Shown here piece after piece: positions 10,174 through 59,717 of a stretch of 64,000 bases of DNA (the first letter of the stretch is position 1; each line of letters begins with the position of its first letter). Below the pieces are notes generated by a model. It was not told the origin of the DNA and did no database searches. It was given only the letters and a program-made list of their open reading frames with translations. Source of the stretch: Bacteroidota bacterium (lineage in GTDB: Bacteria; Bacteroidota; Ignavibacteria; Kryptoniales; JAKASW01); the NCBI GenBank assembly GCA_021811615.1, contig JAJZNW010000077.1, positions 6,145 through 70,144 of the forward strand, in the 5' to 3' direction. The translations under genes and the position numbers were made by a program.

Positions 10174-10176
10174 ATT

Positions 10177-13167
10177 TCATCTCTCATTTCTAACGTCCCG
10201 ATGAAAACTTTCCGGCGGTCCGAGATAGCTCTTTCTTACTTCGCCGGCGTTAACCACAATTTTTTCCAGCACAACGCCCGGGTCGACCATCCATATCTTC
10301 AGAATATGATACCCCGGTTTGTCGATGTCGAAAGAAGTGAAGCTCTTCCTGACATTATCCTCGACGGTCTTGTTCCAGTCGGCACCGGAACCGGCATCAT
10401 AATCTGCAGGGACAAGCGTGACGGTTTTCGGAGCGCCGTTGTCGATGGAGATTGCATACTGAAGTCCGCGGCCCGGCATAAAATTCAGAGTCGGGCTGAA
10501 AATTCCTTCCACATCGACCTTACCCGAGTTGAACAAAAACATTCTGTACTCGAGGCATGGAGAATCTTTTCCCGGCACCGCGGGCGGAGCGTCAACAGGC
10601 GAGATCGCCCGCATCCCCGAAAGCGTGTTTCCGTAACCCTGGATATTTATCCACCGGTTTTTGCCTGCGCCGGTGAGCCCGGAATAATGGGCCGCTTCAA
10701 TCGAGACGCATCCGTCCTCTTCCACAAAACCTCTGAGCGTTTTTCGGGTTACCGCTGAAGGATTTTCCACATTCACCCTGACCGGCACCTGCTCACCGGT
10801 CCCACGGATCGTCACCGTCCCGTGCGATGAACCTTCAGGGACCTTGCCCCAGTCTATGCCGACCATGAGACGCGTTTGTCCGTGAACTTCTCCCTTCGGA
10901 TGAGAAACGGTAATCCACGGTTTGTCGGCGACGGCGGTGTACTCAAAGGGCTTTTTGCCTTTGTTAAACACATCTATATAATGACGAGTCTCATTGAACG
11001 GATCGAAACCGGGGAGAACGGGCTGTGCGGCCGGTCCCGGCCATGCCGACTCGGATCCATCAACGGCAACCCCCATCGATGCGGCATCAGGAACGGAAAT
11101 GTTCTTAAGGTCGACCGCATCGAGATTGTTCTCGCGAGGCTGGTTCCAGCCCGTGTATCCGATGAAAGGCTGATCCATGAAGCCGTCCCACTTGGCGTGA
11201 TCGAAAGTATGATTGAAATATCCCATCAGGCTTGTGTCGGCAGCGAACAGCTTGCGTGTCCTCGCGGCCATTTCGCCGGTCGTCGCGCGCCCCTGGCTGG
11301 CGTACAGCTCGTTCCGGCCAGCCGCATAGTACATGTCGTTGAGGATATACGATGCCTTTGTCGGGAAGAGGACGAGTTCATAAAACGCTTTCTTCTCGCC
11401 GACGGGAATCTCCCTGTAAATCCTCTCCGCTTCGTCCGTGATCTTTTTGAATTTCCCGACGACATTTGCCGCTTCGTTGTAATTGACGGTGCTGTAAGTA
11501 GTCGGGCTGAGAAGCTCGGGTTTGCGCCTGCTGTTGTATTTCGAATATTTCAGGAGGATATTCGCGATCTGGCCGGCGTACCTTTCACCGAACTGCTGAC
11601 GCGCCCACATGCGGGCATACTCGTCGATATTGTTGTTCGTCCATCGGTTCGTGTTCCATGCGAGGTCCATGAAATATGAAATGGGGAGCTCATATCCTTT
11701 CAGGTGTCCGACGTTGACGATCCAGATTCGGTCGGCGCCGTACTCTTTCGCGAGGGACATCTGGTCCCATATTTTGGGAAGTGCGTTGGTATTGATCCAC
11801 TGGTAGTTTCTCGGCCCGCCGTGATAGTCGAAATGATAATAGATGCCGGCACCGCCGCTCCGTTTTCTTTCGGCCGCGTCGGGGAGGCGGCGGAGGTTTC
11901 CGTAATTGTCGTCGGTCCAGAGAATCGTGACGTAGTTCGGGACACGGAAACCGGCATTGTAGTAACTCAGGACTTCTTTGTATGGACACCAGAGCTGTGG
12001 GATATTTGCAACGTCCGGGTTCATGTACTTTGCAAGTATCTTTTCCTGCACCCGGACGATCTTGCCGAGGAGGGTCGTGTCCTGCGTGAGTGTTCCGCCG
12101 GGAATCATGGGAGAATCGTTCTCGCCCCGGAGACCGATGGTGACAATCTCGCTGTAGTTCTTGTTCCGCTCGATGCCGTGCTTCCAGAAATTTATGAGCG
12201 TATCGGGATACTTTGCGAAGTTCCACGAACCGAGTGTTCTCATGTACCGCCTGTCCCATTCCTTCTGAGCACGCATCATGGGTTCCTGATGCGACGTGCC
12301 CATGTAGATGCCGTACTTGTTCGCCATGACGGGGTTCAGCGTGTCGTCTTCGTTGAAGGCGTTGTTCCACATCGCGGGCCAGAGATAGTTGGCCTTCAAA
12401 CGGAGAAGAAGATCGAAGACTCTCTCGTAGAACCTGTGTCCGTAATTCGCGACGTATGGAGGAACCGGCGGATGAACGCTCTGCTTCGCGAATCCGTAGC
12501 GGTGGATAACCCAGTTCGTAAGGTCGGGCCACTCGTCGTTCAGAAAGATACCGCGGTACTTGACGGAAGGCGGGCCCTCTTCGAAAGTCCCGGGCTTAAC
12601 GTAAAGAGCGTCGCGGTGTTTAGGCGAAACGTCAGCCCACCAGTACCATGGCGAGACGCCGATCTTCTCAGAAACGTCATAGATGCCGTAGATAGTACCG
12701 AGTTTGTCGCTCCCGGCGATCACCAGCGCACGATCGACGCCGTGGAACGGTTTGTCGACGACTTTTATTATGAAAGACTCCCATTTACCTTCGATTTCCC
12801 TTACGTCGATTTTCTTTTCATCGACCAGCCTGGTTATGAGCGGACTTTTGCCGATCGTACCAGCGACGACAATGTCCTTAGCAGACGGAAGTTTGGCCGT
12901 CGACAGTTCGGGCTTCGATCCCGTTACTTTTGCTATGTCGGATTGCAGATCGGTAAGTGCGTGAATTACTCCCCAGTAGTCTTCGGAGCTCACGCACAGC
13001 GGCGCCGATTTGCCGGATGCGGAGAGAACAAACTCACCCGGTTCTTTTTCTGTGGTGATATATGTCTTCGCGCCGAGGGCGAACGAATCACGCGGAATGG
13101 AAAGGAAGATTGCAATGGTGACGGCGGCGCCGAACGCCGATGAGCAAAAGATTTTCAGGATTTTCAT
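10177..13167 (-). CDS. GH115 alpha-glucuronidase (copy 2)
   Basis: Same GH115 motifs as copy 1 (YRGIFLNDE, KANYLWPAMW, GTSHQEP, YYHFDYHG) with a clean signal peptide. Long near-identical stretches shared with copy 1. Confidence 0.93.
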   Translation of the reverse strand: MKILKIFCSSAFGAAVTIAIFLSIPRDSFALGAKTYITTEKEPGEFVLSASGKSAPLCVSSEDYWGVIHALTDLQSDIAKVTGSKPELSTAKLPSAKDIVVAGTIGKSPLITRLVDEKKIDVREIEGKWESFIIKVVDKPFHGVDRALVIAGSDKLGTIYGIYDVSEKIGVSPWYWWADVSPKHRDALYVKPGTFEEGPPSVKYRGIFLNDEWPDLTNWVIHRYGFAKQSVHPPVPPYVANYGHRFYERVFDLLLRLKANYLWPAMWNNAFNEDDTLNPVMANKYGIYMGTSHQEPMMRAQKEWDRRYMRTLGSWNFAKYPDTLINFWKHGIERNKNYSEIVTIGLRGENDSPMIPGGTLTQDTTLLGKIVRVQEKILAKYMNPDVANIPQLWCPYKEVLSYYNAGFRVPNYVTILWTDDNYGNLRRLPDAAERKRSGGAGIYYHFDYHGGPRNYQWINTNALPKIWDQMSLAKEYGADRIWIVNVGHLKGYELPISYFMDLAWNTNRWTNNNIDEYARMWARQQFGERYAGQIANILLKYSKYNSRRKPELLSPTTYSTVNYNEAANVVGKFKKITDEAERIYREIPVGEKKAFYELVLFPTKASYILNDMYYAAGRNELYASQGRATTGEMAARTRKLFAADTSLMGYFNHTFDHAKWDGFMDQPFIGYTGWNQPRENNLDAVDLKNISVPDAASMGVAVDGSESAWPGPAAQPVLPGFDPFNETRHYIDVFNKGKKPFEYTAVADKPWITVSHPKGEVHGQTRLMVGIDWGKVPEGSSHGTVTIRGTGEQVPVRVNVENPSAVTRKTLRGFVEEDGCVSIEAAHYSGLTGAGKNRWINIQGYGNTLSGMRAISPVDAPPAVPGKDSPCLEYRMFLFNSGKVDVEGIFSPTLNFMPGRGLQYAISIDNGAPKTVTLVPADYDAGSGADWNKTVEDNVRKSFTSFDIDKPGYHILKIWMVDPGVVLEKIVVNAGEVRKSYLGPPESFHRDVRNER

Positions 13168-47866: not shown

Positions 47867-48934
47867 ATGAGTTTCTTCATATCGAGAAGGTCGGCAGCCT
47901 GCATACTATTTCCGTTGATCTTTACTTTGGCGGTGCGCGCACGAGCACAAGTCGGCGCCGACAGCGTCGCGCAGGACACGAGCGCTGACAGCGTTCGCTC
48001 CGCATTCGCGGCCACTTTCCTGACCGCCATGACGGGTACCATCCTTGAAGGAATCTCAGACGCGAACGGTTTTTCGATACCCTATTTCGGTGCCGTGCAT
48101 TTCGCCGACGGAGGCTGGAAAGCTGGAACAGCATTTCTCGGTACTGAGCTCGGCTTGCTTCTGCTACGTAAACAATTGCTGGACGCCGCTGGCCCTTCCG
48201 GACCTGGATATCCGTTCACCGACAACAATCTGCTCTACCGGAGAGATGGAGGATACAGCCCCCAATCCGATTCATATCTGGTGACCGCCCATGCCACGGA
48301 CTGGTTGCTTGAGGACATCGGTTTCATGGACCTGTTTTCTTCTTTCAGGGAACTGCACGACCGGACATCGACCATCAACAAGGTTACCATGGACCAGACG
48401 AGTATTCCGAGCCTGATGCTTTCGCCGTTCAAACCGAAATACCTGACCGACCCTTGGGTACTCGCTCCCGTGTTCGTCGGATGCGCCGCGAATTACTTAT
48501 ACAACAAAGACAGCAAACCACTTTCCCTGGCAAGAAACGTGACGATGTTCAACAGAACAATGACTCCTGTGCAGGCAATGCTGCTCATGGGCGGTGTCGG
48601 CGCCTTACAGACCATTTTCGTCGCCGCGGGCGAGGAAATGATGTTCCGCGGTGTAGTGCAGACCGAAGCGACGGAGCTAAGCACTCCGGCAGTCGGTCTC
48701 GTCGTGAGTTCGGTGGTTTTCGGTCTGTGGCATGTACCGCGTGGGAATCTGGCTTACGGCCTGAGTGCGGCTATCGGCGGTTTTTACATGGGCTGGCGCT
48801 ACCAGGAAAACGGGTACAACCTTGGAGAAACAATTGCCATGCATTTCTGGAATGATTTCGTGGCGAATTTGATCGTGATGGTACGCAACCCCAGGACTGC
48901 CGAATACGTTTACAGCATCAATTGGAAGTTCTAG
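47867..48934 (+). CDS. CPBP (CAAX protease/Abi) family intramembrane metalloprotease with signal peptide
   Basis: EEMMFRG, FGLWH and MHFWND motifs. Confidence 0.82.
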   Translation: MSFFISRRSAACILFPLIFTLAVRARAQVGADSVAQDTSADSVRSAFAATFLTAMTGTILEGISDANGFSIPYFGAVHFADGGWKAGTAFLGTELGLLLLRKQLLDAAGPSGPGYPFTDNNLLYRRDGGYSPQSDSYLVTAHATDWLLEDIGFMDLFSSFRELHDRTSTINKVTMDQTSIPSLMLSPFKPKYLTDPWVLAPVFVGCAANYLYNKDSKPLSLARNVTMFNRTMTPVQAMLLMGGVGALQTIFVAAGEEMMFRGVVQTEATELSTPAVGLVVSSVVFGLWHVPRGNLAYGLSAAIGGFYMGWRYQENGYNLGETIAMHFWNDFVANLIVMVRNPRTAEYVYSINWKF

Positions 48935-49113
48935 TCTGCCGCATTGTACTTATCGCGGACAGAGTTGCCAATGGGTTTGTCGATTCGAAGCGTGACTTGT
49001 CTCCGTGCTTGCGACAATCGCTTCCCCCTTGACGCGCGGAAAGGAGCATGATTCTCAAAATCGGTTTGGAACATTAAGACAAGAAATTCTTATCTTACTT
49101 CGTCAGAGCGGGC

Positions 49114-49332
49114 ATGAGCAAGAAGACTACAGATATACTCAAAGAAATCGAAGACCTACCTATCCAGGATCGTATCCTGGTAATTGAAAAAGCCCTCAAA
49201 TCGCTTAAGAAAGAGGGAAATAAGAGAGAATTACGCCGGGCTGCGAGAGAGCTTCTCGAGGATTATAAAACCGACAAAGACCTCACTTCGTTCACAGATC
49301 TCGACATGGAAAACTTCTATGAACCAAGGTGA
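49114..49332 (+). CDS. Putative type II antitoxin
   Basis: 72 aa with an acidic C-terminus, overlapping the downstream toxin start by 14 bp. Confidence 0.75.
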   Translation: MSKKTTDILKEIEDLPIQDRILVIEKALKSLKKEGNKRELRRAARELLEDYKTDKDLTSFTDLDMENFYEPR

Positions 49333-49663
49333 CGTCTGGCTAATAACCCTCGACCCGACCGTGGGTGCCGAAATCTCGAAGGCCCGTCCATGCGTCATCG
49401 TCAACGACGATAACCTCGGCCGCCTGCCGCTCAAGATGGTGGTACCGATCACCGACTGGAAAGACCACTTCTCAGTCGCACCATGGATGGTGAAGATCGA
49501 GCCGTCGAACGGGAACGGGCTCGACAAGGACTCTGCCGCAGATTGCTTCCAGCTCCGCTCGATATCGGAGCAGCGGTTAATCAGACGCATCGGGAAACTC
49601 GATGAACCTCAGGTCGAGCGAATCAAAGCAGCGCTTGCGATTGTACTGACTATAAAAGGATGA
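49319..49663 (+). CDS. PemK/MazF family endoribonuclease toxin
   Basis: MNQGDVWLITLDPTVGAEISKARPCVIV...VVPIT...DSAADCFQLRSISEQRL. Confidence 0.92.
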   Translation: MNQGDVWLITLDPTVGAEISKARPCVIVNDDNLGRLPLKMVVPITDWKDHFSVAPWMVKIEPSNGNGLDKDSAADCFQLRSISEQRLIRRIGKLDEPQVERIKAALAIVLTIKG

Positions 49664-49804
49664 AGTTTCCGGACCCAAACTGTGGTCTTCCTCTCTCGGG
49701 CGGTAACTTCGAGGGAACGTATCCGTTATGACCAACGTTGGGATTGCGGCTTGATATTCACGGATTCCGTAGGTAAGCCATATACAAATCGGAGCGAGAG
49801 ACTA

Positions 49805-51373
49805 ATGGATAATACTGGTTCCAACGAGAATTCCGGGCGGCGCATCACGCACATCATCTTCGCGTTTGCGCTCGCCGAGATACTGGTCCATCTTTTCTCA
49901 AATGCGTTCGCGCATTACGGCTATTTCCGCGACGAGCTCTACTACATCGCCTGCAGCAGGCACCTCGCAGCCGGGTATGTCGACCAGCCTCCACTCTCGA
50001 GCTTCATATTATTCATCAGCATTAAGCTCTTCGGCGACTCGATATTCGCGTTGAGACTACTTCCTGCACTGGCGTCCGGCATAACGGTGTACGTGACCGG
50101 GCTGATCGCCCGAAAGCTCAACGGCGGAACGTTTGCGGTAACGCTCGCCTGCCTGACGATGGCCATAACTCCGCAATTTCTCGGAACAAACACGATATAT
50201 TCCATGAACAGCTTCGACTGGCTCTTCTGGTCGCTCGGGGCATATATCGTTTTGCTCATCGTTCAGTCGGAAGAGGGCGGTTTACGAATAAAACAATTGT
50301 GGATTCTCCTCGGTGTTGTTCTCGGTCTCGGATTGCTTAACAAGATAGACATGCTCTGGTTCGGATTTAGTCTTTTCGTCGGACTCCTGCTGACACCGCA
50401 GAGGATTCACCTCAAGACGATATGGCCGTACATCGCGGCGATTATCGCCCTCGTCATATTCAGTCCGTACATCGTGTGGAACATTACGCACAACTTCGCG
50501 ACGCTCGAGTTCATACACAATGCATCATCCATCAAATACGCATCTCAGAACCCTCTGAACTTTATATCGGACACGATACTGGCTATGAACCCTCTCGCTT
50601 TACCCGTCTGGCTGGCGGGAATTTATTTTTTCTTCTTCAATAAAGAAGGAAAGAAGTTCCGCCTGGTGGGACACCTGTTCCTGGTCTCTTTCGTAGTTCT
50701 GATTATCAACTGGCATTCGAAAGCCGAGTATATAGCGCCCGCGTTCCCGATACTCTTAGCCGGCGGCGGAGTGATGTTCGAGCGGAAAGCGTCCCGCCGC
50801 GGTTTCGGCTGGACGAGAATCGCGATACCTTCGGTGGTCACTATTTCCGGATTGCTCCTGCTCCCATTCGCCCTTCCGGTTCTCCCGGTCCAGACGTTCA
50901 TCGATTATTCGAAGGCGACCGGGATCACCCCTTCTTCGGGCGAATCCAACGAAGTGGCGTCGCTTCCGCAATTCTATGCCGACATGTTCGGGTGGGAGAA
51001 TATGGCCGCAACTGTCTCGAAGGTATATCTCTCACTTCCCCCCGATGAACGGAAACAGACGGTAGTCTTTGCGCGCAACTACGGCGACGCCGGCGCGATA
51101 GACTTTTATCGCTCCCGATATCCGCTCCCTAAAGTAATCAGCGGACACAACAACTACTGGTTCTGGGGAAAAGGAGACAGCACGTTCGCAACGGTCCTGG
51201 TGATCGGCGGGACTTTGAAAGGAAACCTTGAAGTCTGCGATTCGGTAACCGAAGCTGCGATCATACGCGACAAGTATTCCATGCCTTACGAGAACAATCT
51301 GCCCGTATTCGTTTGCAGGGGGTTCAATATCCCGTTCGCAGAGATTTGGAATCGAATGAGGGTGTTTATCTGA
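49805..51373 (+). CDS. GT39/PMT-like (GT-C) glycosyltransferase
   Basis: YGYFRDELYY, GYVDQPPL, GLGLLNK and NYGDAGA...SGHNNYWFWG motifs in a multi-TM protein. Confidence 0.85.
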   Translation: MDNTGSNENSGRRITHIIFAFALAEILVHLFSNAFAHYGYFRDELYYIACSRHLAAGYVDQPPLSSFILFISIKLFGDSIFALRLLPALASGITVYVTGLIARKLNGGTFAVTLACLTMAITPQFLGTNTIYSMNSFDWLFWSLGAYIVLLIVQSEEGGLRIKQLWILLGVVLGLGLLNKIDMLWFGFSLFVGLLLTPQRIHLKTIWPYIAAIIALVIFSPYIVWNITHNFATLEFIHNASSIKYASQNPLNFISDTILAMNPLALPVWLAGIYFFFFNKEGKKFRLVGHLFLVSFVVLIINWHSKAEYIAPAFPILLAGGGVMFERKASRRGFGWTRIAIPSVVTISGLLLLPFALPVLPVQTFIDYSKATGITPSSGESNEVASLPQFYADMFGWENMAATVSKVYLSLPPDERKQTVVFARNYGDAGAIDFYRSRYPLPKVISGHNNYWFWGKGDSTFATVLVIGGTLKGNLEVCDSVTEAAIIRDKYSMPYENNLPVFVCRGFNIPFAEIWNRMRVFI

Positions 51374-51374
51374 G

Positions 51375-52040
51375 TCAGTAAACAAAAGGTATCAGGCGCG
51401 CGGTTCGCTTCGCATAAGACCTGTACTCGTCGCCATAACGGTCTGCAAGATATTTGTCCTGCGCCGGTACGTTGGCGAACGCGAAGCTGCCGAACATCAG
51501 TGCCGGTATGATGAGAAGTGCAGGCTGCCCCGACATCAGAACCCACCCCGTAAAAAGGACAATATCTCCGAAGTAGTTCACATGGCGCGAAAGTCTCCAC
51601 ATACCGCCTGTGTAGAGATGACCTTTGTTCTCCGGACGCCGTTTCCAAACCATCCTCTGCCACTCCGATCCCGTATTGATCGCAGAACCCATTAGTACCA
51701 TTACTCCGCCGACAAGCGTCCATATTCCTACCCTCACATCGCTCATCGCGCCGAAGTAGGCGATGAGAATATCGATGAGGCCCACCCACACGGCAATCAT
51801 GGCGACTTCGCTCCAGCCAACTTTTCGTTTTATGAAGACAACGATTGTCGCCAGCACGCGCAGGAAGTAAAGGCTCGCGGCCATCGCAAGCAATAAACGT
51901 CGCAGCGCCGAGCTTTCCTGATGTTGGCCGCCGAAGAGAATCAACAACGCCACAACGACAATCAGGAAATGCAATGCGGCGAGAGTTCCCTTTGACTTAG
52001 GTGACGGCGATTTGTCCCGATATATTTCTGATTGATCCAT
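51375..52040 (-). CDS. DUF1295 / steroid 5-alpha-reductase-like membrane protein
   Basis: LYTGGMWRLSRHVNYFGD and YLADRYGDEY...LIPFVY motifs. Confidence 0.82.
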   Translation of the reverse strand: MDQSEIYRDKSPSPKSKGTLAALHFLIVVVALLILFGGQHQESSALRRLLLAMAASLYFLRVLATIVVFIKRKVGWSEVAMIAVWVGLIDILIAYFGAMSDVRVGIWTLVGGVMVLMGSAINTGSEWQRMVWKRRPENKGHLYTGGMWRLSRHVNYFGDIVLFTGWVLMSGQPALLIIPALMFGSFAFANVPAQDKYLADRYGDEYRSYAKRTARLIPFVY

Positions 52041-52330: not shown

Positions 52331-53572
52331 ATGATCCGGCGTGATCTCTCCAGGCGGGAGTTCATCTCCATATCAGGTTTAGCCGCCGGTAGCACGTATG
52401 CCGCGCTCTCTTCGCCAGCACTCTTCCGGCAACTCCTTTCGTGGGTGGAGCGGATTCCCGAGGTAAACCCATATCAGAAATTTCTCGCGGACCAGCCGAT
52501 CGCGAGATACTGGGTGTCGACAGAATCGATAAACGCAGATTGCCTCAGATGCCACTCCTCCTCCGAGACAGGCGGCAGGAAAAGCTTTGACCACGAAGAA
52601 AGATTTGTGAAATGTCTTTTGTGCGCGCAGGGCTGTGTGATGAAAGAGAACGAGCGCGGGAAATGCAGGGCGAGGATGAATGTGAAGGGACGGCTCAGAA
52701 GCCTCGTCTACGGACGACCCATCGCGATTCATGTGGACCCGATAGAGAAGAAACCATTCTACCATTTCCTCCCGGGAAACCAGGCATACTCTCTTGCCAC
52801 CGCCGGATGTCCCCTGTCATGTCAGTTCTGCCAGAACTGGGAGATCTCACAGGCGAAGCCGGAGGACTACGATGTAAAATTCGTCCCGCCCGACAACATC
52901 GTATACAACTCGATGTCGGAAAGCGCACCTATTATCGCGTTCACCTACAACGAACCGACTGTCTTCGTGGAATACCTGACCGACATATCCCGTGCGGCAC
53001 GGAAGAAGGGAATCAGAACTGTCCTGGTAAGCTGCGGTTTCATGAACGAGGAACCTCTTCGAGAAATGTGCGACGTACTCGACGCGATCAAGATCGATCT
53101 GAAGGGATTCAGCGAAGACTTCTACCGCAAGGTTTGCGGTGCTGAACTGAAACCGGTGCTTCGGAGCATAAAGCAGGTCGCGTCGAGCAGGGTCCATCTC
53201 GAAATCGTGAACCTCGTCGTTCCCACTCTGAACGACTCCGACAAGATGATGAGTGCCCTCTCGGAATGGATCGTCGGCGAGACCGGCACCGACGTCCCGG
53301 TTCACTTCACGAGGTTTCATCCCGATTATCGCCTGCTCAATCTTCCGCCCACTCCCATTTCGACGCTCGAACGGGCGAGAGACATCGCCATTTCGAAAGG
53401 AATTCATTACGCGTTTGTGGGAAACGTCCCGGGACATCCTGGCAACTCGACCTACTGCCCTTCCTGCGGGAAGATCGTGATAAAGCGGAGCGGTTTCTTC
53501 CCGGTCGAATATCATTTGAAGGACGGCCGCTGTGAATTCTGCGGCCGTGAGATAGCGGGCGTCTGGAAATAA
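52331..53572 (+). CDS. amrS: AmmeMemoRadiSam system radical SAM enzyme with N-terminal twin-arginine signal
   Basis: VDPIEKKPFYHF, GCPLSCQFCQNWEISQ (CxxxCxxC), TYNEP, PVHFTRFHP, GNVPG and C-terminal CxxC..CxxC. N-terminal SRREFI. Confidence 0.93.
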   Translation: MIRRDLSRREFISISGLAAGSTYAALSSPALFRQLLSWVERIPEVNPYQKFLADQPIARYWVSTESINADCLRCHSSSETGGRKSFDHEERFVKCLLCAQGCVMKENERGKCRARMNVKGRLRSLVYGRPIAIHVDPIEKKPFYHFLPGNQAYSLATAGCPLSCQFCQNWEISQAKPEDYDVKFVPPDNIVYNSMSESAPIIAFTYNEPTVFVEYLTDISRAARKKGIRTVLVSCGFMNEEPLREMCDVLDAIKIDLKGFSEDFYRKVCGAELKPVLRSIKQVASSRVHLEIVNLVVPTLNDSDKMMSALSEWIVGETGTDVPVHFTRFHPDYRLLNLPPTPISTLERARDIAISKGIHYAFVGNVPGHPGNSTYCPSCGKIVIKRSGFFPVEYHLKDGRCEFCGREIAGVWK

Positions 53573-53631
53573 CTTGTCCGGAGCGTTCCGAGGTCTGACC
53601 GACATTAGTGCTCCATGAATGGAGGTGACCG

Positions 53632-55161
53632 ATGAAGGAAATAATATGTTGCTTCGCCCTTCTCCTGTTGATAGGTTCGTGCCGTGGCCAGAAAATCGAA
53701 ACGCACGGATCGAAAGAGAAGCCGGTAAAGCCGGCCGCGTTCGCTGGTAAGTTTTATCCTGCCGATTCGACCAAGTTGAGAGCGGCCATCAAAGCTTTTC
53801 TTGCTGATGCGAAACCAGCAGTCGCCGCACATCCCGTCGCCATCATCGTCCCACACGCCGGCTATATCTTCTCCGGCCAGATAGCTGCCGACGCATATAA
53901 CCAGACGAGGAACGGTGACTACGAACTGGTTGCCGTGCTCGGGACTAATCACACCACTGCCGGATTCGAAGGAGCCTCAGTCTACAGCGACGGAGGATTC
54001 GGGACACCGTTGGGTACCTCGGCGGTTGACGACAGCACCGCGAATGAGCTCCTCACAGCGTATCCCCCCGCGACGCTGGACATTGCCGTCCATGAGAACG
54101 AACACTCGGTCGAAGTACAGATCCCGTTCATTCAATATCTCTTTCCGAACGCGAGAATCCTTCCCATCGTGGTAAGCGAAACAGATCCCGGCAACTGCGC
54201 CGCATTCGGACGCGCCCTTGCAGGAGTATTGAAGAATCGCAAAGCGCTGATTGTCGCGAGCTCCGACCTTTCACACTATCCACGGTTCGAAGACGCCGTA
54301 AGGATCGATTCCGCTTCACTTGAAGCGATAGCGAGCCTGGACATGGACCGGATGGTCTCTCATTTCAGGAAGACGATCCGACAGAGAGTTCCCCAGTTGT
54401 CGACGTGCGCGTGTGGTGAAGCGCCGATTATAGCCGCAGTAGCCGCGGCTAAGGAACTCGGCGCGAGCAAGGGAACAATAATCAGCTACAGCAATTCCGG
54501 CTACAATCCAGCCGGAAAGAGCGACCAGGTAGTCGGGTACGGCGCCGTGGTGATAACCGAAGGCGGGCAGACTCTTCCGCCGGAACCCGACACGGCTATT
54601 TCCGGCACCGGGTTCAAACTCGACCCGCAGGAAAAGTCGGCTCTCCTGAAATACGCGCGAAAGACACTCGAGCAGATCTTCGCCACCGAAACCGTCCCTC
54701 TCCCCCGCGATCTTGGGAGTATGGCGGAAGCGAGGCGCGGAGCATTCGTGACGCTGAGGAAAGGCGGCGAACTCCGCGGCTGCATCGGAAGCATGACCGA
54801 CGACAGGCCTTTGGGAACAGTTGTCGGCGCGATGGCGCTCCATGCGGCATTCAACGATCCGAGGTTCCCGCCCTTGAGAGAATCGGAATTGAAAGATGTC
54901 GAAATCGAGATATCGGTTCTCACTCCTTTCAAGGAAGTGCACGGTGCAGAAGAAATCGTCCTCGGCCGCGACGGCGTGGTGATCAGGAAAGGAGACAGGC
55001 AGGCTGTATTTCTTCCGCAGGTCGCGACGGAAACGGGATGGGACAAGGAAACCTTCCTCGACCAGCTCTGCAACAAGGCCGGATTAATATCGGGAGATTG
55101 GAAGGATGCTCAGCTGTTCACTTTCCAGGCCGATGTTTTCGCCGAGCCTGCGGCACATTGA
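53632..55161 (+). CDS. AmrB-AmrA (Memo + AMMECR1) fusion with probable lipoprotein signal
   Basis: Memo motifs AGKFYP, PHAGY, EHSVEVQ, ASSDLSHY and CG. AMMECR1 motifs GAFVTL, LRGCIG, DPRF and FLPQV. N-terminus MKEIICCFALLLLIGSC. Confidence 0.92.
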   Translation: MKEIICCFALLLLIGSCRGQKIETHGSKEKPVKPAAFAGKFYPADSTKLRAAIKAFLADAKPAVAAHPVAIIVPHAGYIFSGQIAADAYNQTRNGDYELVAVLGTNHTTAGFEGASVYSDGGFGTPLGTSAVDDSTANELLTAYPPATLDIAVHENEHSVEVQIPFIQYLFPNARILPIVVSETDPGNCAAFGRALAGVLKNRKALIVASSDLSHYPRFEDAVRIDSASLEAIASLDMDRMVSHFRKTIRQRVPQLSTCACGEAPIIAAVAAAKELGASKGTIISYSNSGYNPAGKSDQVVGYGAVVITEGGQTLPPEPDTAISGTGFKLDPQEKSALLKYARKTLEQIFATETVPLPRDLGSMAEARRGAFVTLRKGGELRGCIGSMTDDRPLGTVVGAMALHAAFNDPRFPPLRESELKDVEIEISVLTPFKEVHGAEEIVLGRDGVVIRKGDRQAVFLPQVATETGWDKETFLDQLCNKAGLISGDWKDAQLFTFQADVFAEPAAH

Positions 55162-55266
55162 TGGATCGGAAGCCGCGGCACCAGGCGCCTCGTTCGCTCT
55201 TAGCGCCCGGGTTTTTGCGTTTGAATTGAACACCTGCATCTTGATGCTACTTTGTTGCGGATCGAG

Positions 55267-57462
55267 ATGATAAAGAGCGGACGGTTACAAAATTCATCCA
55301 CAGCATCATACCTGATCGCGGTTGGCTTCGTTTCCATTTTCGGACAGGTTGTAGTACTTCGCGAGCTGAGCGTGTCGTTTTACGGAATAGAACTCATATA
55401 TATCCTGTCACTCGGTATCTGGCTTCTCGGCACGGCTCTCGGTGCCGCTATCGGGCGCCGATCCGGCGACCCCGGCAAAAAGTGGGTGCATACCCTCTTC
55501 CTCATCGCATCTGCCTCACTGGCGATGGACATCGTATTCATCAGGGGAATGAGGACGCTGTTTAACGCCGTCCCCGGTGGGTTTCTCCCGTTTCAGACTC
55601 AGATGATCGGCATGTCGCTGGCAATACTCCCGCTCAGTATGATCACAGGGCTCCTTTTCCGGTGGAGCGCGCGACTCTTTGCCGCCGGGGGGCACACACT
55701 TGCCGAATCATACGCGCTCGAAAGCGCAGGCGGAGTACTCGGAGGTCTGATGTCCACCCTTCTCTTAGCCTGGGGACTTCAGAACATTTTCGCCGGGATC
55801 TTTTGCTGCGCCTGCTCACTCTTCGTCGTGAACGCCTGCTCATGGAAATCCGGATTCGAGGTGCAAAGGTACATTTCATTTGCAGGCCTGATCTTCCTTA
55901 TCGTTGCCGCGGCGTTCTCGAACAGCCTCGACATGTGGATGACGTCGTGGGATCATCCGGATTTGAGCGCGTCGCGAGATACACCGTATGGACGCATTAC
56001 AGTCACCTCGCGAGATGGCCAGGTGATCGTTTTCGAAAACGACGCTCTCTCTTATGAAACGGAAACGACCTCGGCGGAAGAACTCGTTCAACTCTCCACC
56101 CTGCAGAGAGACGTTCCGCGAAAAGTCCTCGTTATCGGAGGCGGATTTGCAGGGGTTGTCAATGAGATGTTGAAACTCCCCGTCACAAGAATCGATTACG
56201 TGGAGATAAACAAAAGAGCTATCGGCATCCTCCGCATTCATCTCCCCGCGGAAATGTCAAGTTCGCTTAACGATGAAAGAGTCCGCATCATCTATGATGA
56301 TCCGAGACGATTTCTTCGGACTCGAAACTCATATGACGCGATCCTGACGGCAATGCCGGAGCCGATGTCGGCGCAGGTAAATCGATTCTACACCACCGAG
56401 TTTTTCAGGCAATGTTCATCGAGTTTGAATTCGGGCGGAATATTCTCGTTCGCCATCCGTTCCGCGGAGAATTTGTGGACACCTCACCTTCTAAACAGAA
56501 ACAGGAGTGTTTACGCGGCGCTGAAAGCCGTCTTCAGGCATGTCGTGGTCGTGCCAGGTGTCACCAACATCTTCATCGCATCCGACTCCGCGCTCACCAC
56601 CCATCCCGCCATTCTCGGGGAACGTCTTTCAAAAAGAAGAATCGAAACGCGGCTCGTCAGCATTGAGTATGTCAACTACCTTTACACAAACGACAGGTTC
56701 TCTGCCGTAAACACCGTACTCTCTCAGGAGATCTATGATCCCAATTCCGACACTCATCCGGCATGTTACAGCCACACGATCTCCATATGGTTATCAAGGC
56801 TGCTTGTCGGTTTCGACTTGCCCGGTTTGCGTTCGTTTGGGTTGAACAGGATTCTTAAGTCTCCGGCATTATGGATTCTCGCCTTGGCGGCAGTTGTGTT
56901 GGGGGTTGGAAAAAGATTCGCCTCAACACGCAGGTTCATCGTGATGTTTCTGGCCGGGGCTGTCGGTATGATATCGGAGACAGTGATTCTGCTGAATTAC
57001 CAGAGCTCGTGCGGGGCACTGTACCAGGACATAGGACTCCTTCTCATGATGTTCATGACGGGGCTCGCCGCCGGCGCCGCGTTGACGGCAAGGTTGATAT
57101 CCAAACGGCAATCCGCGGGAAGAAGGAACGGATGGTGGGGGGCGATAATTCTCGGCGGGCTCGGATTACTTAATCTCCTTGTATATTACGGAGTAAAATT
57201 CGATCTACTAGGCGGCCTTGCAATCGCATCAGTAATACTGGCACTAGACGGTGCTTTCGTCGCCGGAGTCTTCGCTTTTGAAAGCCTGCGCGGCATCGAT
57301 GCGCGAACCGGTTTTATGTCATGGCTTTATTCCGCCGACCTGATTGGCGGGTGTATTGGCACGGTAGCCGCGAGTCTGTTTCTCATACCTATCTTCGGGA
57401 TACCGGTGACGACGCTTTCGGGAGCGGCGATTGCCTTCCTGGCCATCGCATTTCTGAGATAG
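55267..57462 (+). CDS. Fused MFS-like / spermidine-synthase-like membrane protein
   Basis: About 7 TM, then DTPYGRI, VLVIGGG, YVEIN, DDPRRFL, YDAIL and FYTTEFF, then about 7 TM with YSADLIG. Alternative TTG start at 55252. Confidence 0.85.
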   Translation: MIKSGRLQNSSTASYLIAVGFVSIFGQVVVLRELSVSFYGIELIYILSLGIWLLGTALGAAIGRRSGDPGKKWVHTLFLIASASLAMDIVFIRGMRTLFNAVPGGFLPFQTQMIGMSLAILPLSMITGLLFRWSARLFAAGGHTLAESYALESAGGVLGGLMSTLLLAWGLQNIFAGIFCCACSLFVVNACSWKSGFEVQRYISFAGLIFLIVAAAFSNSLDMWMTSWDHPDLSASRDTPYGRITVTSRDGQVIVFENDALSYETETTSAEELVQLSTLQRDVPRKVLVIGGGFAGVVNEMLKLPVTRIDYVEINKRAIGILRIHLPAEMSSSLNDERVRIIYDDPRRFLRTRNSYDAILTAMPEPMSAQVNRFYTTEFFRQCSSSLNSGGIFSFAIRSAENLWTPHLLNRNRSVYAALKAVFRHVVVVPGVTNIFIASDSALTTHPAILGERLSKRRIETRLVSIEYVNYLYTNDRFSAVNTVLSQEIYDPNSDTHPACYSHTISIWLSRLLVGFDLPGLRSFGLNRILKSPALWILALAAVVLGVGKRFASTRRFIVMFLAGAVGMISETVILLNYQSSCGALYQDIGLLLMMFMTGLAAGAALTARLISKRQSAGRRNGWWGAIILGGLGLLNLLVYYGVKFDLLGGLAIASVILALDGAFVAGVFAFESLRGIDARTGFMSWLYSADLIGGCIGTVAASLFLIPIFGIPVTTLSGAAIAFLAIAFLR

Positions 57463-57706: not shown

Positions 57707-58912
57707 ATGAGCGGATCACGCAGGTGGCCGCGTCCATGGGCATTCGGCCTTTTGATTTTGCCCGTCGCGGTTTATGTCGGTTTCACGACGACGACGCTCC
57801 CCTTCCTTCTAAGCAAAGCGGGAGTATCGGTCTATGAGATCGGGACTATCGGCTCGATTCTCCAGCTGCCGAATATCCTGGTCTTCCTCTGGGCCCCGCT
57901 TGCCGACGTAAGGCTTAGACGCAGGGCATGGCTCGTGCTCTCGGCGAGCGTGACTGCGTTGTGTCTCTGGATCGCGTTACCGCTGGTCAGCGCGTCCAGC
58001 TTACACATCATGACCGGTCTGCTTTTGCTTGGGGGAATCACAGTCTCGCTCGTGCTCGCTTCCTCCGGCGGCTTGATGGTGACCGCGCTCCCCACAGCGG
58101 ATCAATCGAAAGCCGCCGCTTGGAATCAGGCCGGCTATCTCGCGGGAGGAGCATTGGGCGGCGCACTGATTCTCTGGCTGGTAACTCATCTCCCCATTTT
58201 CGTAAGCGGCCTGATCGCAGCGCTGGCCCTTTCTGTCCCCGCTTTCCTTGCACTTTCGCTTCCGGAGAAAGAGCCCGCGGTCTCGCACTGGTTCAAGGGA
58301 CGCCTGGCCGCCATGAAGCGGGAAGTCAGCAGTGTTTTCAGGAACCCGGTTCGTAAATGGACCGCTCTTCTGCTGATGGCACCGGCGGGTACGGGCGCCG
58401 CACAGGTTCTTCTCCCTGCGATCGCGTCGCACTACGGCGTCGGCGCGTCGGGAGTCATCTGGATTAACGGGCTCGGAGGTGGGATCGCTCTCGGCGCCGG
58501 CTCGCTCCTCGGCGCGATGGTTCCAGGAAATTGGGACGGACGGGGCGTCTATGCCGCTGCCGGATTTCTTAACGGCATTGCAGCAATTGTACTCATGTCG
58601 GTCAGCGGATCGACCGGTTATCTCATCGGGACCATCGTTTACCTCGTGACACAGGGACTTTGCTGGGCGAGATTCACCGGGCTCATCGTGGAGATCGTCG
58701 GGCCGGACACGCAGGATGCGAGTACCCTCTACAGCGCACTGTCGGCTGCGGGAAGCATTCCGCTTGCATACATGACGTGGCTCGACGGGTTCGGCTATTC
58801 AAAGTTCGGCACGCACGGGCTCTTGATGACCGATGCGACAGGAAACATCGTTGTGTTCGGGATAGTAGTCGCGGCATTCCTGGCCAACGGCTTGCCCTTC
58901 CGGCATGCGTAA
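57707..58912 (+). CDS. MFS transporter (AmpG-like)
   Basis: FLWAPLAD...RRRAW motif and about 12 TM segments. Confidence 0.78.
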   Translation: MSGSRRWPRPWAFGLLILPVAVYVGFTTTTLPFLLSKAGVSVYEIGTIGSILQLPNILVFLWAPLADVRLRRRAWLVLSASVTALCLWIALPLVSASSLHIMTGLLLLGGITVSLVLASSGGLMVTALPTADQSKAAAWNQAGYLAGGALGGALILWLVTHLPIFVSGLIAALALSVPAFLALSLPEKEPAVSHWFKGRLAAMKREVSSVFRNPVRKWTALLLMAPAGTGAAQVLLPAIASHYGVGASGVIWINGLGGGIALGAGSLLGAMVPGNWDGRGVYAAAGFLNGIAAIVLMSVSGSTGYLIGTIVYLVTQGLCWARFTGLIVEIVGPDTQDASTLYSALSAAGSIPLAYMTWLDGFGYSKFGTHGLLMTDATGNIVVFGIVVAAFLANGLPFRHA

Positions 58913-58963: not shown

Positions 58964-59163
58964 GTCTAGAGCAAACTCAGCAATGCTGCGGCTGAATTCG
59001 TCTCAATGGGTTGGAAGTTGACTATCCCACAGAAAATCCGTAGAATTCTCGCGGACGGTAGAGCAACATCGGATGGAAAAACGGTAGCTGCCGGATTTAG
59101 TGCATCCTGGTAGAATCCTCAACGGGCTACGGGATTTTGCGTACCGCGACGAGTCCACAATCG

Positions 59164-59227
59164 AGCCACGCGATTTATCGCGTGGCGGGCAATCAATAAC
59201 AAAATTGAAACCGCTTCAGCGGTTTCA
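59164..59227. repeat. REP doublet upstream of tnpA
   Basis: gccacgcgatttatcgcgtggc plus tgaaaccgcttcagcggtttca. Confidence 0.85.
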
Positions 59228-59246
59228 CGGAAAGGGGGAAAAGGGC

Positions 59247-59717
59247 ATGGGCCATTCATTCGTTCGAATCTTCGTACATCTCGTATGGTCTACGAAAAAC
59301 TGGAGACATTTCATAACAAGCAATCTGAGACCTCGATTATTTCAACATTTCCAAGAGTACAGCAGGCTCAACAACATCCACATCGACTCAATAGGAATTC
59401 AACCCGAGCACGTGCACTTCCTCATCAGCCTGAGGAGCGATCAGAAAGTCGATGATGTTGTGAAGCTGATTAAAGGAGAATCTTCTCACTGGATCAATTC
59501 GGAAAACCTCATTCATTCCAAGTTCAGCTGGCAAAAAGGGTACGGTGCTTTCTCAGTGAGCTCATCGAATCTCGACGGAATCAGAGAGTACGTTAGAAAT
59601 CAGGACGCGCATCACCGGAAAAGATCGTTCAGGGAGGAACTCGAGGCGATTTTGGCTGAGCATGCGTTTAATATTTCCGAATTGACACCTGAAGACCCAC
59701 CCGAAGAAAACCGATAA
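59247..59717 (+). mobile_element. tnpA: IS200/IS605-family Y1 (HUH) transposase, REP-associated (RAYT-like)
   Basis: HLVWSTK, EHVH (HUH), IKGESS, WQKGYGAFSVS and EYVRNQ (catalytic Tyr). No tnpB. Flanked by REP hairpins. Confidence 0.9.

Follow-up and report, generated by a model that had tools for sequence, protein, structure and literature searches.

The 64,000 nt analysed here (contig JAJZNW010000077.1 of assembly GCA_021811615.1; 'the window' in the following) contain, at positions 52331-57462, three open reading frames in one orientation, on the forward (+) strand like all features located below. The first, amrS (52331..53572; 413 aa), encodes a radical SAM enzyme of the AmmeMemoRadiSam type whose N-terminus is extended by a putative export region; the second is an amrB-amrA fusion (53632..55161; 509 aa), in which Memo occupies residues 35-306 and AMMECR1 residues 339-503; and the third encodes an MFS-fold membrane protein with a SpeE-like insert (55267..57462; ATG start, 731 aa, with an alternative TTG start at 55252). 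A preliminary description of this DNA had given gaps of about 60 and 100 bp between these co-oriented genes, and they indeed measure 59 nt (amrS/amrB-amrA) and 90 to 105 nt (amrB-amrA/membrane gene). That the real starts might lie downstream of the signal regions discussed below is not what we find: the upstream starts are backed by a Shine-Dalgarno sequence and by homologue lengths, with GGAGGTGA (53621..53628), as read from the sequence, lying 3 nt upstream of the ATG of amrB-amrA.

AmrS matches TIGR04337 with 370.1 bits (cut-off 220) over residues 89-412 and the Radical_SAM Pfam model with 65.4 bits; its fold model has a pLDDT of 89.7, and the radical SAM cluster motif CX3CX2C (CPLSCQFC, 52808..52831, i.e. 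C160, C164 and C167) occupies columns that are invariant in the family alignment. Classification as a glycyl-radical activase was rejected, with TIGR02493 (64.8 vs 231.75) and TIGR02494 (52.7 vs 174.35) far under their cut-offs, and no glycyl-radical enzyme was seen near the trio. Since the TIGR04337 match opens at residue 89, about 88 N-terminal residues, MIRRDLSRREFISISGLAAGSTYAALSSP, are extra. Residues 1-35 (52331..52435) form a putative Tat signal region consisting of an n-region, the motif SRREFI, a weakly hydrophobic h-region and ALSSP, and SRREFIS followed by an uncharged stretch fits a Tat motif of the S/T-R-R-x-F-L-K type. The proposal that AmrS carries a genuine twin-arginine signal gains from its conservation: RRx[FL][LIVFM] occurs in 115/120 close homologues (62 to 100% identity), the called starts of the other five sitting downstream of the motif, and a twin-arginine motif was read by eye at 71 of 73 genomic loci in many phyla (63/73 by a strict rule), the two remaining loci having a contig-truncated gene and an unclear start, respectively; all these counts come from simple in-house rules, not from TatP or SignalP. 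The full n-h-c layout is kept in relatives across 47 to 82% identity, and a more distant AmrS subfamily has [ST]KR[ED]FL in place of the RR motif. Canonical AmrS ORFs were read for comparison, 29 of them drawn from 30 loci, and none shows such a motif. The h-regions of AmrS are less hydrophobic than the AmrB-AmrA signals (best 10-residue hydropathy 1.16 in the window and 1.86 on average over 70 loci, vs at least 2.16 in 70/70). The window N-terminus gave no match to the Tat profiles PF10518 and TIGR01409 at E <= 10, these being short profiles for which HMMER filters drop weak hits; across the family, the short PF10518 is matched at E <= 1 by 6/41 members, and 2/41 N-termini weakly match a Rieske Tat-signal model. 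A tatC gene is present in the same genome (199.4 bits) and in 14/14 other carrier genomes searched, in 13 of them over the cut-off.

After the signal, an insertion of about 28 residues contains CLRCH (CxxCH; 52541..52555), followed by a later conserved His (residue 88 in the A3 alignment numbering) that is nearly invariant in the family. CxxCH is found in 119/120 close homologues and in 41/56 aligned rows; 15/56 rows are without it, and it is missing from a Smithella-like group. Profile matches of this region are weak (DmsE, E 0.0045; NrfH, E 0.051), and family scans are mixed between zinc-ribbon and cytochrome c models, zinc-ribbon being the most frequent Pfam assignment (14/41 members). Haem-maturation genes are represented by three PF01578 matches. 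Attachment of c-type haem normally occurs after Sec export and would be unusual after Tat export; overall, we lean somewhat against CxxCH carrying haem.

The AmrB-AmrA fusion matches TIGR04336 (246.2 bits, cut-off 26) and TIGR04335 (174.2 bits, cut-off 99) as well as the Memo (205.4 bits) and AMMECR1 (180.9 bits) Pfam models. Its N-terminus, MKEIICCFALLLLIGSC, terminates in the lipobox I-G-S-C (LLLLIGS-C), which conforms to the pattern [LVI][ASTVI][GAS]C and follows a hydrophobic signal; read from the sequence, the lipoprotein-type signal peptide is MKEIICCFALLLLIGS followed by C (53632..53682). The lipoprotein-like signal suggested earlier is thus present, and an N-terminal hydrophobic signal is shared by 70/70 homologous fusions, with a Cys after the h-region in 46/70 by a loose rule and the remainder resembling AxA-type signals. 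A second amrS-amrA-amrB operon in the same genome is canonical and signal-less, its AmrB showing no signal (best 10-mer hydropathy 0.68).

The fold model of the membrane protein (pLDDT 87.7, pTM 0.88) comprises 14 membrane helices in the order seven helices, SpeE fold, seven helices, with the domain between helices 7 and 8, i.e. the same architecture as previously deduced from the sequence (about seven transmembrane segments on either side of a SAM-type domain). Structurally, the membrane core comes closest to VMAT2 (9kqa, Z 29.9, rmsd 3.4, 335 aligned residues), VAChT (8zmr, Z 28.4) and SotB (6kki, Z 27.1); the MFS fold with its two six-helix halves is taken from the predicted model, in matches that span model residues 1-731. 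The two halves are weakly alike (hhalign probability 21%), and Pfam MFS models gave no match, with only Spermine_synth and MTS listed at E <= 0.01. Invariant charges (R32, E33, E42, R93, E152, D222 and D691) are embedded in the membrane. Loops assigned to the inside contain on average 17.06 Lys and Arg residues vs 2.64 for those assigned to the outside, inside exceeding outside in 50/50 homologues. This positive-inside bias and the MFS fold agree in predicting a periplasmic location of the SpeE-like domain, i.e. on the exported side, where an odd number of N-terminal helices had initially been suggested to put it.

Linkage of the three features, for which a test across genomes had been suggested earlier, holds in both directions. 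All three genes occur together at 64/80 loci, and nine further loci offer no room for a judgement. At two loci (L033 and L073) there is room and the adjacent transporter is absent, with a transporter of 40 to 44% identity elsewhere in both genomes. Any other neighbour gene is common to at most 14 loci, and a Myxococcota group of Tat-type AmrS (L080-L083) is without a Memo/AMMECR1 neighbour. In the reverse test on 301 genomes sampled from the phylum, the transporter (counted at E <= 1e-30) was found in 11, and in each of these it lies next to AmrS and/or Memo/AMMECR1, with the order of the genes differing; AmrS itself is over cut-off in 77 of the 301. The features of the trio are not a matter of chance, because they recur across phyla.

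The SpeE-like domain (residues 228-520; 55948..56826) has a spermidine synthase fold (PF01564, Spermine_synth, 72.6 bits, cut-off 22.9; 1uir, Foldseek E 6.8e-14, Z 30.2). The roles of its residues, mapped by alignment, we take to be those given in the SpeE literature for the catalytic Asp of D-x-x-D-P, the dcSAM-selecting Asp of GGGDG and the active-site Tyr. The glycine loop is retained, with G291 and G296 invariant over 50 homologues; the window domain also retains E313 and D345, the ribose acid being E or D and the adenine Asp being D in 49/50 homologues each. The catalytic positions are substituted: over the same 50 homologues, the catalytic Asp position is mostly G (33; A in eight, S in three) and the Tyr position is A in 45, and the position of the dcSAM-selecting Asp is mostly hydrophobic (F 20, I 13, Y 4, V 3, M 3, A 3). 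Because these residues are gone and all SpeE equivalog models score below cut-off, the domain is not classed as a spermidine synthase. Retention of the ribose and adenine ligands suggests that it still binds a nucleoside, and judging by these residues it is probably a nucleoside-binding protein domain that is not an aminopropyltransferase.

A complex model of AmrS (residues 45-413) with this domain (residues 228-520) reached a score of 0.88, the best of three controls reaching 0.00. The pass mark of this score is reached by 58/80 solved complexes and by 2/110 mismatched pairs, counts that are only approximate here because in-house alignments served as input. At least 89% of contacts are shared between runs, and the partner pLDDT is at least 85. 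On AmrS, the modelled contacts lie at residues 131-137 (DPIEKKP region), 169-172 (directly past CX3CX2C) and Y206, so that the active-site face of AmrS would meet invariant residues on the domain surface (E401, N402, W404, Y471, N475 and R477), and the adenosine-pocket residues lie outside the listed interface. Clade-specific residues account for 9/31 interface positions vs 70/325 overall, i.e. without clear enrichment. From the model we consider binding of AmrS to the SpeE-like domain fairly likely.

What such a contact would be for can be read in different ways. The SpeE-like domain of an exported system could serve AmrS, itself related to glycyl-radical activases, as a protein target or a scaffold, with the MFS core moving a small-molecule substrate (a polyamine-like amine or lipid head group) rather than SAM and with AmrS carrying bound SAM through Tat and perhaps regenerating it. 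In this case a nearest solved fold that is the pyruvate formate-lyase (PFL)-activating enzyme with a peptide substrate bound (3cb8, E 2.3e-16), an interface between the AmrS active-site face and invariant domain residues, and adenosine-pocket residues set apart from that interface would all fall into place, and the Tat pathway does move cofactor-loaded proteins. However, canonical systems function without a SpeE-like domain, AmrS is far under the TIGR02493 cut-off, and the retained ribose and adenine ligands speak for nucleoside binding by the domain; we give this explanation a low probability. Somewhat differently, the membrane protein might be a genuine alkyl or methyl transferase of the periplasm that uses an exported donor of its own to produce a modified polyamine or an envelope lipid, with AmrS and AmrB-AmrA acting earlier or later in the pathway and no hand-off of SAM. 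A complete SpeE fold with an invariant glycine loop and invariant membrane charges that suit a cation transporter are compatible with such an enzyme, and operon linkage alone would be accounted for; yet the aminopropyltransferase catalytic Asp and Tyr positions are substituted in at least 44/50 homologues, the equivalog models all stay under cut-off and the AmrS complex model passes its controls; we regard this reading as quite improbable. Remnant Tat motifs do occur in cytoplasm-facing enzymes, and the window AmrS is without a Tat HMM match; that the RR motif is vestigial or a chaperone-binding remnant, as in NarG, of a system residing in the cytoplasm, where SAM and reductants are located, is nevertheless highly implausible: the partner fusion has Sec or lipoprotein signals throughout, charge bias and MFS fold independently place the SpeE-like domain outside, the motif sits within a conserved full signal layout, and canonical paralogues of the same genomes are without it.

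Overall, the prediction that the whole system is extracytoplasmic is supported, in that checks of signals, start sites, topology and co-occurrence all failed to refute it. We consider it highly probable that the three parts form an exported system, and an extracytoplasmic AmmeMemoRadiSam variant with a dedicated membrane partner is the best explanation, in which we have good confidence. In this variant AmrS would fold and gain its Fe-S clusters in the cytoplasm and then, as the conserved signal suggests, be exported by Tat. AmrB-AmrA would follow the Sec route and, going by the lipobox, be lipid-anchored in this organism. The third protein would be an MFS transporter of the amine/proton antiporter type, in which two extra central-loop helices put the SpeE-fold domain into the periplasm; this domain, in which the residues for aminopropyltransferase catalysis are lost and those for holding adenosine are kept, is placed against the active-site face of AmrS by the complex model. 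The MFS core might then export S-adenosylmethionine or a chemically close compound, either an adenosyl-sulfonium or an amine, which the periplasmic domain would hold and hand over to AmrS. AmrS would act by radical chemistry on a substrate of the envelope that AmrB-AmrA handles, and CxxCH...H may provide electrons through a haem or a metal. Supply of SAM or substrate by the membrane protein would fit an amine-antiporter-like MFS fold, the adenosine-binding residues that are kept and a complex model that passes its controls; delivery of SAM by the transporter is nevertheless a tentative idea, and rather unlikely. The complete scenario, i.e. a first extracytoplasmic radical SAM system in which a proton-driven MFS protein exports SAM into a periplasmic pseudo-enzyme domain that loads a Tat-exported AmrS, reduced via a CxxCH haem or metal and acting with Memo and AMMECR1 on an envelope molecule, is speculative, and we regard it as unlikely in this full form.

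Radical SAM enzymes depend on SAM, on a strong reductant and on being shielded from O2, and for this reason they are regarded as cytoplasmic. To our knowledge, oxygen-sensitive, SAM-consuming radical SAM chemistry has not been described outside the cytoplasm, and a literature search gave no report of exported or Tat-linked radical SAM enzymes in the parts of the sources it returned. We also know of neither SAM nor a low-potential reductant in the periplasm, so that exported chemistry would need supply routes such as those proposed here. A widely conserved exported set would widen the range of places where radical SAM chemistry can happen, and the periplasm would then have to contain SAM or a related compound. 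Two domains of the AmmeMemoRadiSam trio, Memo and AMMECR1, have relatives linked to human disease. An obligate partner in which an amine-transporter fold is joined to a probable nucleoside-binding domain, in a defined compartment, offers a new handle on what the trio does, as it narrows the search for substrates to envelope molecules, and with all three genes present in the cultured Rosettibacter primus (locus L018) the question is open to testing.

Each component of the system has known counterparts. The nearest solved structures to AmrS, both by fold (E 2.3e-16, TM 0.80 on target) and by sequence (E 5.8e-11), are PFL-activating enzymes (3cb8, 8fo0), from which AmrS differs in its export signal and in the additional Cys4 motifs that it carries at either end. 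With Tat-exported Fe-S proteins, such as Rieske proteins, hydrogenase small subunits and DmsB-type ferredoxins, it shares an S/T-R-R-x-F-L signal and a cofactor-bearing passenger, but those are electron carriers, whereas AmrS is a radical SAM enzyme; we know of no Tat-exported Fe-S protein that belongs to the radical SAM enzymes and would have to be supplied with a consumable co-substrate outside the cell. The membrane core is most similar to DHA1/SLC18 amine:proton antiporters (VMAT2, VAChT and SotB; Z 27 to 30 over 335 to 345 residues), including conserved buried acidic residues, yet the sequences are about 10 to 13% identical, and those transporters have neither the two-helix central-loop insertion nor a 300-residue outside domain. 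In PRK03612, a membrane-anchored polyamine aminopropyltransferase that aligns to residues 20-399, and in proteins that NCBI names 'fused MFS/spermidine synthase', a SpeE domain likewise comes after membrane helices; the window protein, however, scores 92.5 vs a PRK03612 cut-off of 472, and its SpeE domain, predicted to face outward and without the catalytic Asp, interrupts a 14-helix protein between helices 7 and 8. With canonical AmmeMemoRadiSam, finally, the window system has in common that TIGR04337, TIGR04336 and TIGR04335 are all over cut-off in adjacent genes and that AmrS retains CX3CX2C and the N- and C-terminal Cys motifs. In contrast to the canonical copy of the same genome and the 29 canonical AmrS ORFs, which are without the features of the exported variant, its AmrS adds a Tat-type signal and a CxxCH insertion, its AmrB-AmrA bears a Sec/lipoprotein signal, and the MFS-SpeE membrane protein is a conserved additional linked gene.

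On the plus strand at 52331-57462 lie three co-oriented ORFs, with 59 nt between the first two and 90 to 105 nt between the last two. The first encodes an AmrS protein of 413 aa that scores 370.1 bits with TIGR04337 (cut-off 220); since this match begins only at residue 89, the enzyme has about 88 extra N-terminal residues, and this extension opens with MIRRDLSRREFISISGLAAGSTYAALSSP. The second encodes a Memo–AMMECR1 (AmrB–AmrA) fusion of 509 aa (TIGR04336, 246.2 bits; TIGR04335, 174.2 bits), whose N-terminus is MKEIICCFALLLLIGSC and whose ATG has the ribosome-binding site GGAGGTGA immediately 5' of it. The third, read from an ATG at 55267, encodes a membrane protein of 731 aa in which a Spermine_synth match (72.6 bits) lies between two hydrophobic blocks. 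Terminator scanning of the window gave 4 hits against a shuffle mean of 7.7, i.e. none above shuffles, and promoter scanning gave 8 promoter-like sites against a shuffle mean of 4.0. The genome, which is 84% complete in 150 contigs, contains a tatC gene as well as a second, canonical amrS-amrA-amrB operon (G000, the window's own genome, contig C118; locus L002, 1444-3912) with separate genes that have neither signals nor N-terminal extensions, and this operon served as an internal control for the signals of the cassette.

These signals are widely conserved. A search of 5.8 billion proteins gave at least 8000 AmrS matches, of which the best 120 (identity 62 to 100%, nearly all about 413 aa) were used for motif counts: RRx[FL][LIVFM] stands ahead of the canonical Cys motif in 115, and in the remaining five the called starts lie 3' of it, with the DNA upstream of the called start encoding the motif in one of these (locus L004). 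A locus scan with one genome per species yielded 80 loci from Kryptoniota, Ignavibacteria, Melioribacteraceae (among them the cultured Rosettibacter primus), KSB1, Fibrobacteraceae, Acidobacteriota, Desulfobacterota, Eisenbacteria and others, and 73 of these have an AmrS ORF long enough for signal scoring. A strict Tat rule of our own, i.e. RR and then, no more than 8 residues on, a run of at least 12 uncharged residues, holds in 63 of the 73; S/T-R-R-x-F-L is visible by eye in 71, the other two being a contig-truncated gene (L070) and one with an unclear start (L079). Curated Tat signal HMMs gave no match to the N-terminus of the window's AmrS, and curated Tat profiles match only 6 of 41 AmrS family members at E <= 1, so that assignment to Tat is based on motif, layout and conservation. 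All 70 evaluable fusions have a hydrophobic signal no more than 50 residues from the conserved Memo start, followed by a cysteine in 46 (lipoprotein-like by a loose rule), with AxA-like signals in the rest; no such hydrophobic signal was found in the canonical AmrB of the window's genome (best value 0.68). The best 10-residue Kyte–Doolittle mean of the AmrS h-regions is 1.86 over 70 loci (1.16 in the window), that of the fusion signals at least 2.16 in 70/70. The AmrS h-regions are less hydrophobic than the fusion signals, which is the difference expected between Tat and Sec. We infer that AmrS is exported through Tat with its cluster loaded, and that AmrB–AmrA is exported through Sec and lipidated.

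Also conserved is the linkage to the membrane protein, termed transporter here. All three genes occur together in 64 of the 80 loci, 9 end too soon for a judgement, 5 contain AmrS alone and two (L033, L073) lack the transporter despite available room. The genomes of L012, L028, L033 and L073 have a transporter homologue elsewhere, full-length or cut by a contig end and with 40 to 53% identity, which in the L012 genome stands behind Memo–AMMECR1 on a small contig. Many of the 80 loci come from metagenome bins, some with frame breaks, and related genomes among them are not independent samples. At six of them (L006, L007, L013, L032, L034 and L044) tblastn aligns the fusion or the transporter in two separate frames, which suggests frameshifts or assembly errors in the bins. 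When all ORFs surrounding the loci were clustered, no other gene proved common to more than 14 of them.

For the reverse test, 301 genomes were drawn evenly from the window's phylum. The membrane protein is present at E <= 1e-30 in 11 of these, and in 11/11 it is directly adjoined by AmrS and/or Memo/AMMECR1, even with varying gene orders and with transporter identity down to 25 to 34%. Besides the AmrS next to the transporter, each of these carrier genomes has a second AmrS match away from it. AmrS as such is over cut-off in 77 of the 301 genomes; among the 30 highest-scoring loci, all from transporter-less genomes, 29 ORFs were read, and these lack an RR/KR signal, opening at once with the canonical domain, and have no transporter in their vicinity. 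Clustered at 50% identity, the family of the membrane protein comprises 2755 representatives at E <= 1e-30, and most of the best 150 of these have one common layout of about 715 to 745 residues. Taken together, sequence and prediction show the three-gene cassette as a conserved unit with conserved export signals on two of its proteins.

Two outlying groups show variations of this pattern. In a distant subfamily from the same class (L101-L107, loci of the phylum sample), AmrS opens with [ST]KR[ED]FL and a hydrophobic stretch, and the fusion is likewise signal-bearing; lysine–arginine here replaces the twin arginine, two cysteines lie within the h-region, and the gene order is fusion–AmrS–transporter or fusion–transporter–AmrS. 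In four bins of Myxococcota and Desulfarculales (L080-L083), AmrS at about 9900-11050 has a Tat-like N-terminus (DRRQFLK, NRRQFLK) and neither a CxxCH insertion nor a Memo/AMMECR1 neighbour; in three of the four the next gene encodes a signal-bearing protein that is vWA-like by eye, and the L081 genome has a transporter homologue elsewhere (29% identity).

The CxxCH insertion is a segment of about 28 residues that follows the signal of AmrS and precedes its canonical Cys4 motif; it contains CLRCH and a later conserved histidine. CxxCH is found in 119 of the best 120 of at least 8000 homologues and in 41 of 56 aligned AmrS rows, and is absent from a Smithella-like group, the Myxococcota group and canonical AmrS. 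The window's segment weakly matches the cytochrome models DmsE (E 0.0045) and NrfH (E 0.051), and the matches among 41 family members are divided, with zinc-ribbon models on one side (Ribosomal_S27e in 14) and several cytochrome c models, each in few members, on the other. Genes for cytochrome c maturation occur in the window's genome (3 PF01578 matches). Attachment of haem to a Tat passenger would be unusual. A bis-His c-type haem on the insertion is a tentative reading, somewhat improbable in our estimate; if present, it would be a periplasmic electron entry point for AmrS.

The confident fold model of the membrane protein (pLDDT 87.7, pTM 0.88) consists of seven helices, a SpeE fold (residues 233-486 approximately) and seven further helices. 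In an exhaustive structural comparison, the membrane part matches MFS transporters over residues 1-731, i.e. VMAT2 (9kqa; Z 29.9, rmsd 3.4, 335 aligned), VAChT (8zmr; Z 28.4) and SotB (6kki; Z 27.1), and the soluble domain has its counterpart in Thermus SpeE (1uir; Z 30.2, Foldseek E 6.8e-14); the layout is therefore six helices, a unit of helix 7, domain and helix 8, and six helices. By its predicted fold, the protein is an MFS member in which a hairpin takes the place of the cytoplasmic central loop and brings the domain to the other side of the membrane. Over 50 homologues, loops assigned to the inside contain on average 17.06 Lys+Arg versus 2.64 outside, the inside value is higher in 50/50, and the loops flanking helices 7 and 8 alone give the same orientation. 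The preliminary description had proposed seven helices, a SAM-type domain and seven more helices with the domain outside, and the predicted fold and the charge counts both agree; sequence and prediction together place the partner domain on the outer face. The invariant buried charges (R32, E33, E42, R93, E152, D222, D691) would, as we assume by likeness to DHA1 carriers, fit a cation/proton antiporter. Both membrane halves contain a common motif, Y-A-x-E-S-A-G-G in helix 5 (residues 149-160) and Y-A-A-D-L-I-G-G in helix 13 (688-698), each with an invariant acid (E152, D691), and these may form the transport site; hhalign gave an internal repeat of the two halves a probability of only 21%.

Positions of the SpeE-like domain were mapped by alignment to Thermus SpeE and counted over 50 homologues, with residue roles which we take to be those of the SpeE literature. 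The ribose-binding acid (E or D) and the adenine-binding Asp are each kept in 49 of 50, and the glycine loop is retained. The position of the Asp that selects decarboxylated SAM is mostly hydrophobic (F20, I13, Y4, V3, M3, A3; n=50), glycine, alanine or serine occupies that of the catalytic Asp in 44 and alanine that of the active-site Tyr in 45 of the 50; SpeE equivalog models all stay below cut-off for the membrane protein. From these residues, we read the domain as nucleoside-binding but not an aminopropyltransferase.

A complex model of AmrS (residues 45-413) and the SpeE-like domain (228-520) scored 0.88, the best of three controls 0.00. Of 80 solved complexes, 58 attain the score mark, as do 2 of 110 mismatched pairs; these counts are only a rough calibration because our own alignments were used in the complex model. 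Runs agreed in at least 89% of contacts, with partner pLDDT of at least 85. On AmrS, the contacts lie around DPIEKKP (131-137), at 169-172 directly behind the cluster motif, at Y206 of TYNEP and at the clade-typical GFF (388-390); on the domain, they include the near-invariant E401, N402 and W404 and the Y471/N475/R477 stretch. PDB sequence searches with both chains returned only PFL-activating enzyme and soluble SpeE entries. No comparable complex of known structure was thus seen, and this speaks against a score that merely reproduces one. Clade-specific residues make up 9 of 31 positions at the modelled interface versus 70 of 325 overall, not a clear enrichment. The model supports a putative binding of AmrS to the SpeE-like domain.

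In the mechanism that we favour, the MFS core would export SAM or a closely related compound, and the periplasmic domain would receive it and load AmrS. Alternatively, in an activase-like arrangement, the SpeE-like domain would be the target or scaffold of AmrS, and AmrS would carry its own SAM through Tat. The membrane protein might also be a separate transferase of the same pathway, a role to be weighed against the substituted catalytic positions of its domain. A cytoplasmic system with a vestigial RR motif is unlikely because of the Sec signals of the fusion and the topology of the transporter.

Neighbouring genes do not seem to belong to this cassette. Directly downstream, an MFS gene (57707-58912, plus strand; MFS_1 E 3.4e-19, weak BT1 E 9e-5) follows the cassette again in just two of the 80 loci, L005 and L067, which belong to the closest relatives (78 to 79% identity), and was dropped as a member. 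Some members of the folate–biopterin transporter family carry SAM in other organisms. An ORF at 59100-59717 (plus strand) resembles, by eye, an IS200/REP-associated tyrosine transposase. The upstream genes at 47867-52040 are all envelope-related, encoding a signal-bearing, CPBP/Rce1-like intramembrane protease, a PMT_2 (ArnT-like) glycosyltransferase and, on the minus strand, a DUF1295/isoprenylcysteine-methyltransferase-like membrane protein; they too were rejected, as they are not conserved beside the cassette elsewhere.

Memo/AMMECR1 contexts are reportedly treated by Burroughs et al. 2019 (J Biol Chem), and may there include secreted or membrane-linked ones. The literature searched, whose coverage excludes that paper, contained no exported AmmeMemoRadiSam system or periplasmic radical SAM enzyme; on AMMECR1/AmrA/AmrB it held efflux-pump papers only, and on SpeE-like domains with MFS nothing relevant by title. 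PMC7159879 cites Burroughs et al. Among the matches listed, databases name these AmrS proteins only 'AmmeMemoRadiSam system radical SAM enzyme' or 'pyruvate formate lyase activating enzyme'. The families in the cassette are all known ones, and it is their combination and their predicted compartment that are new.
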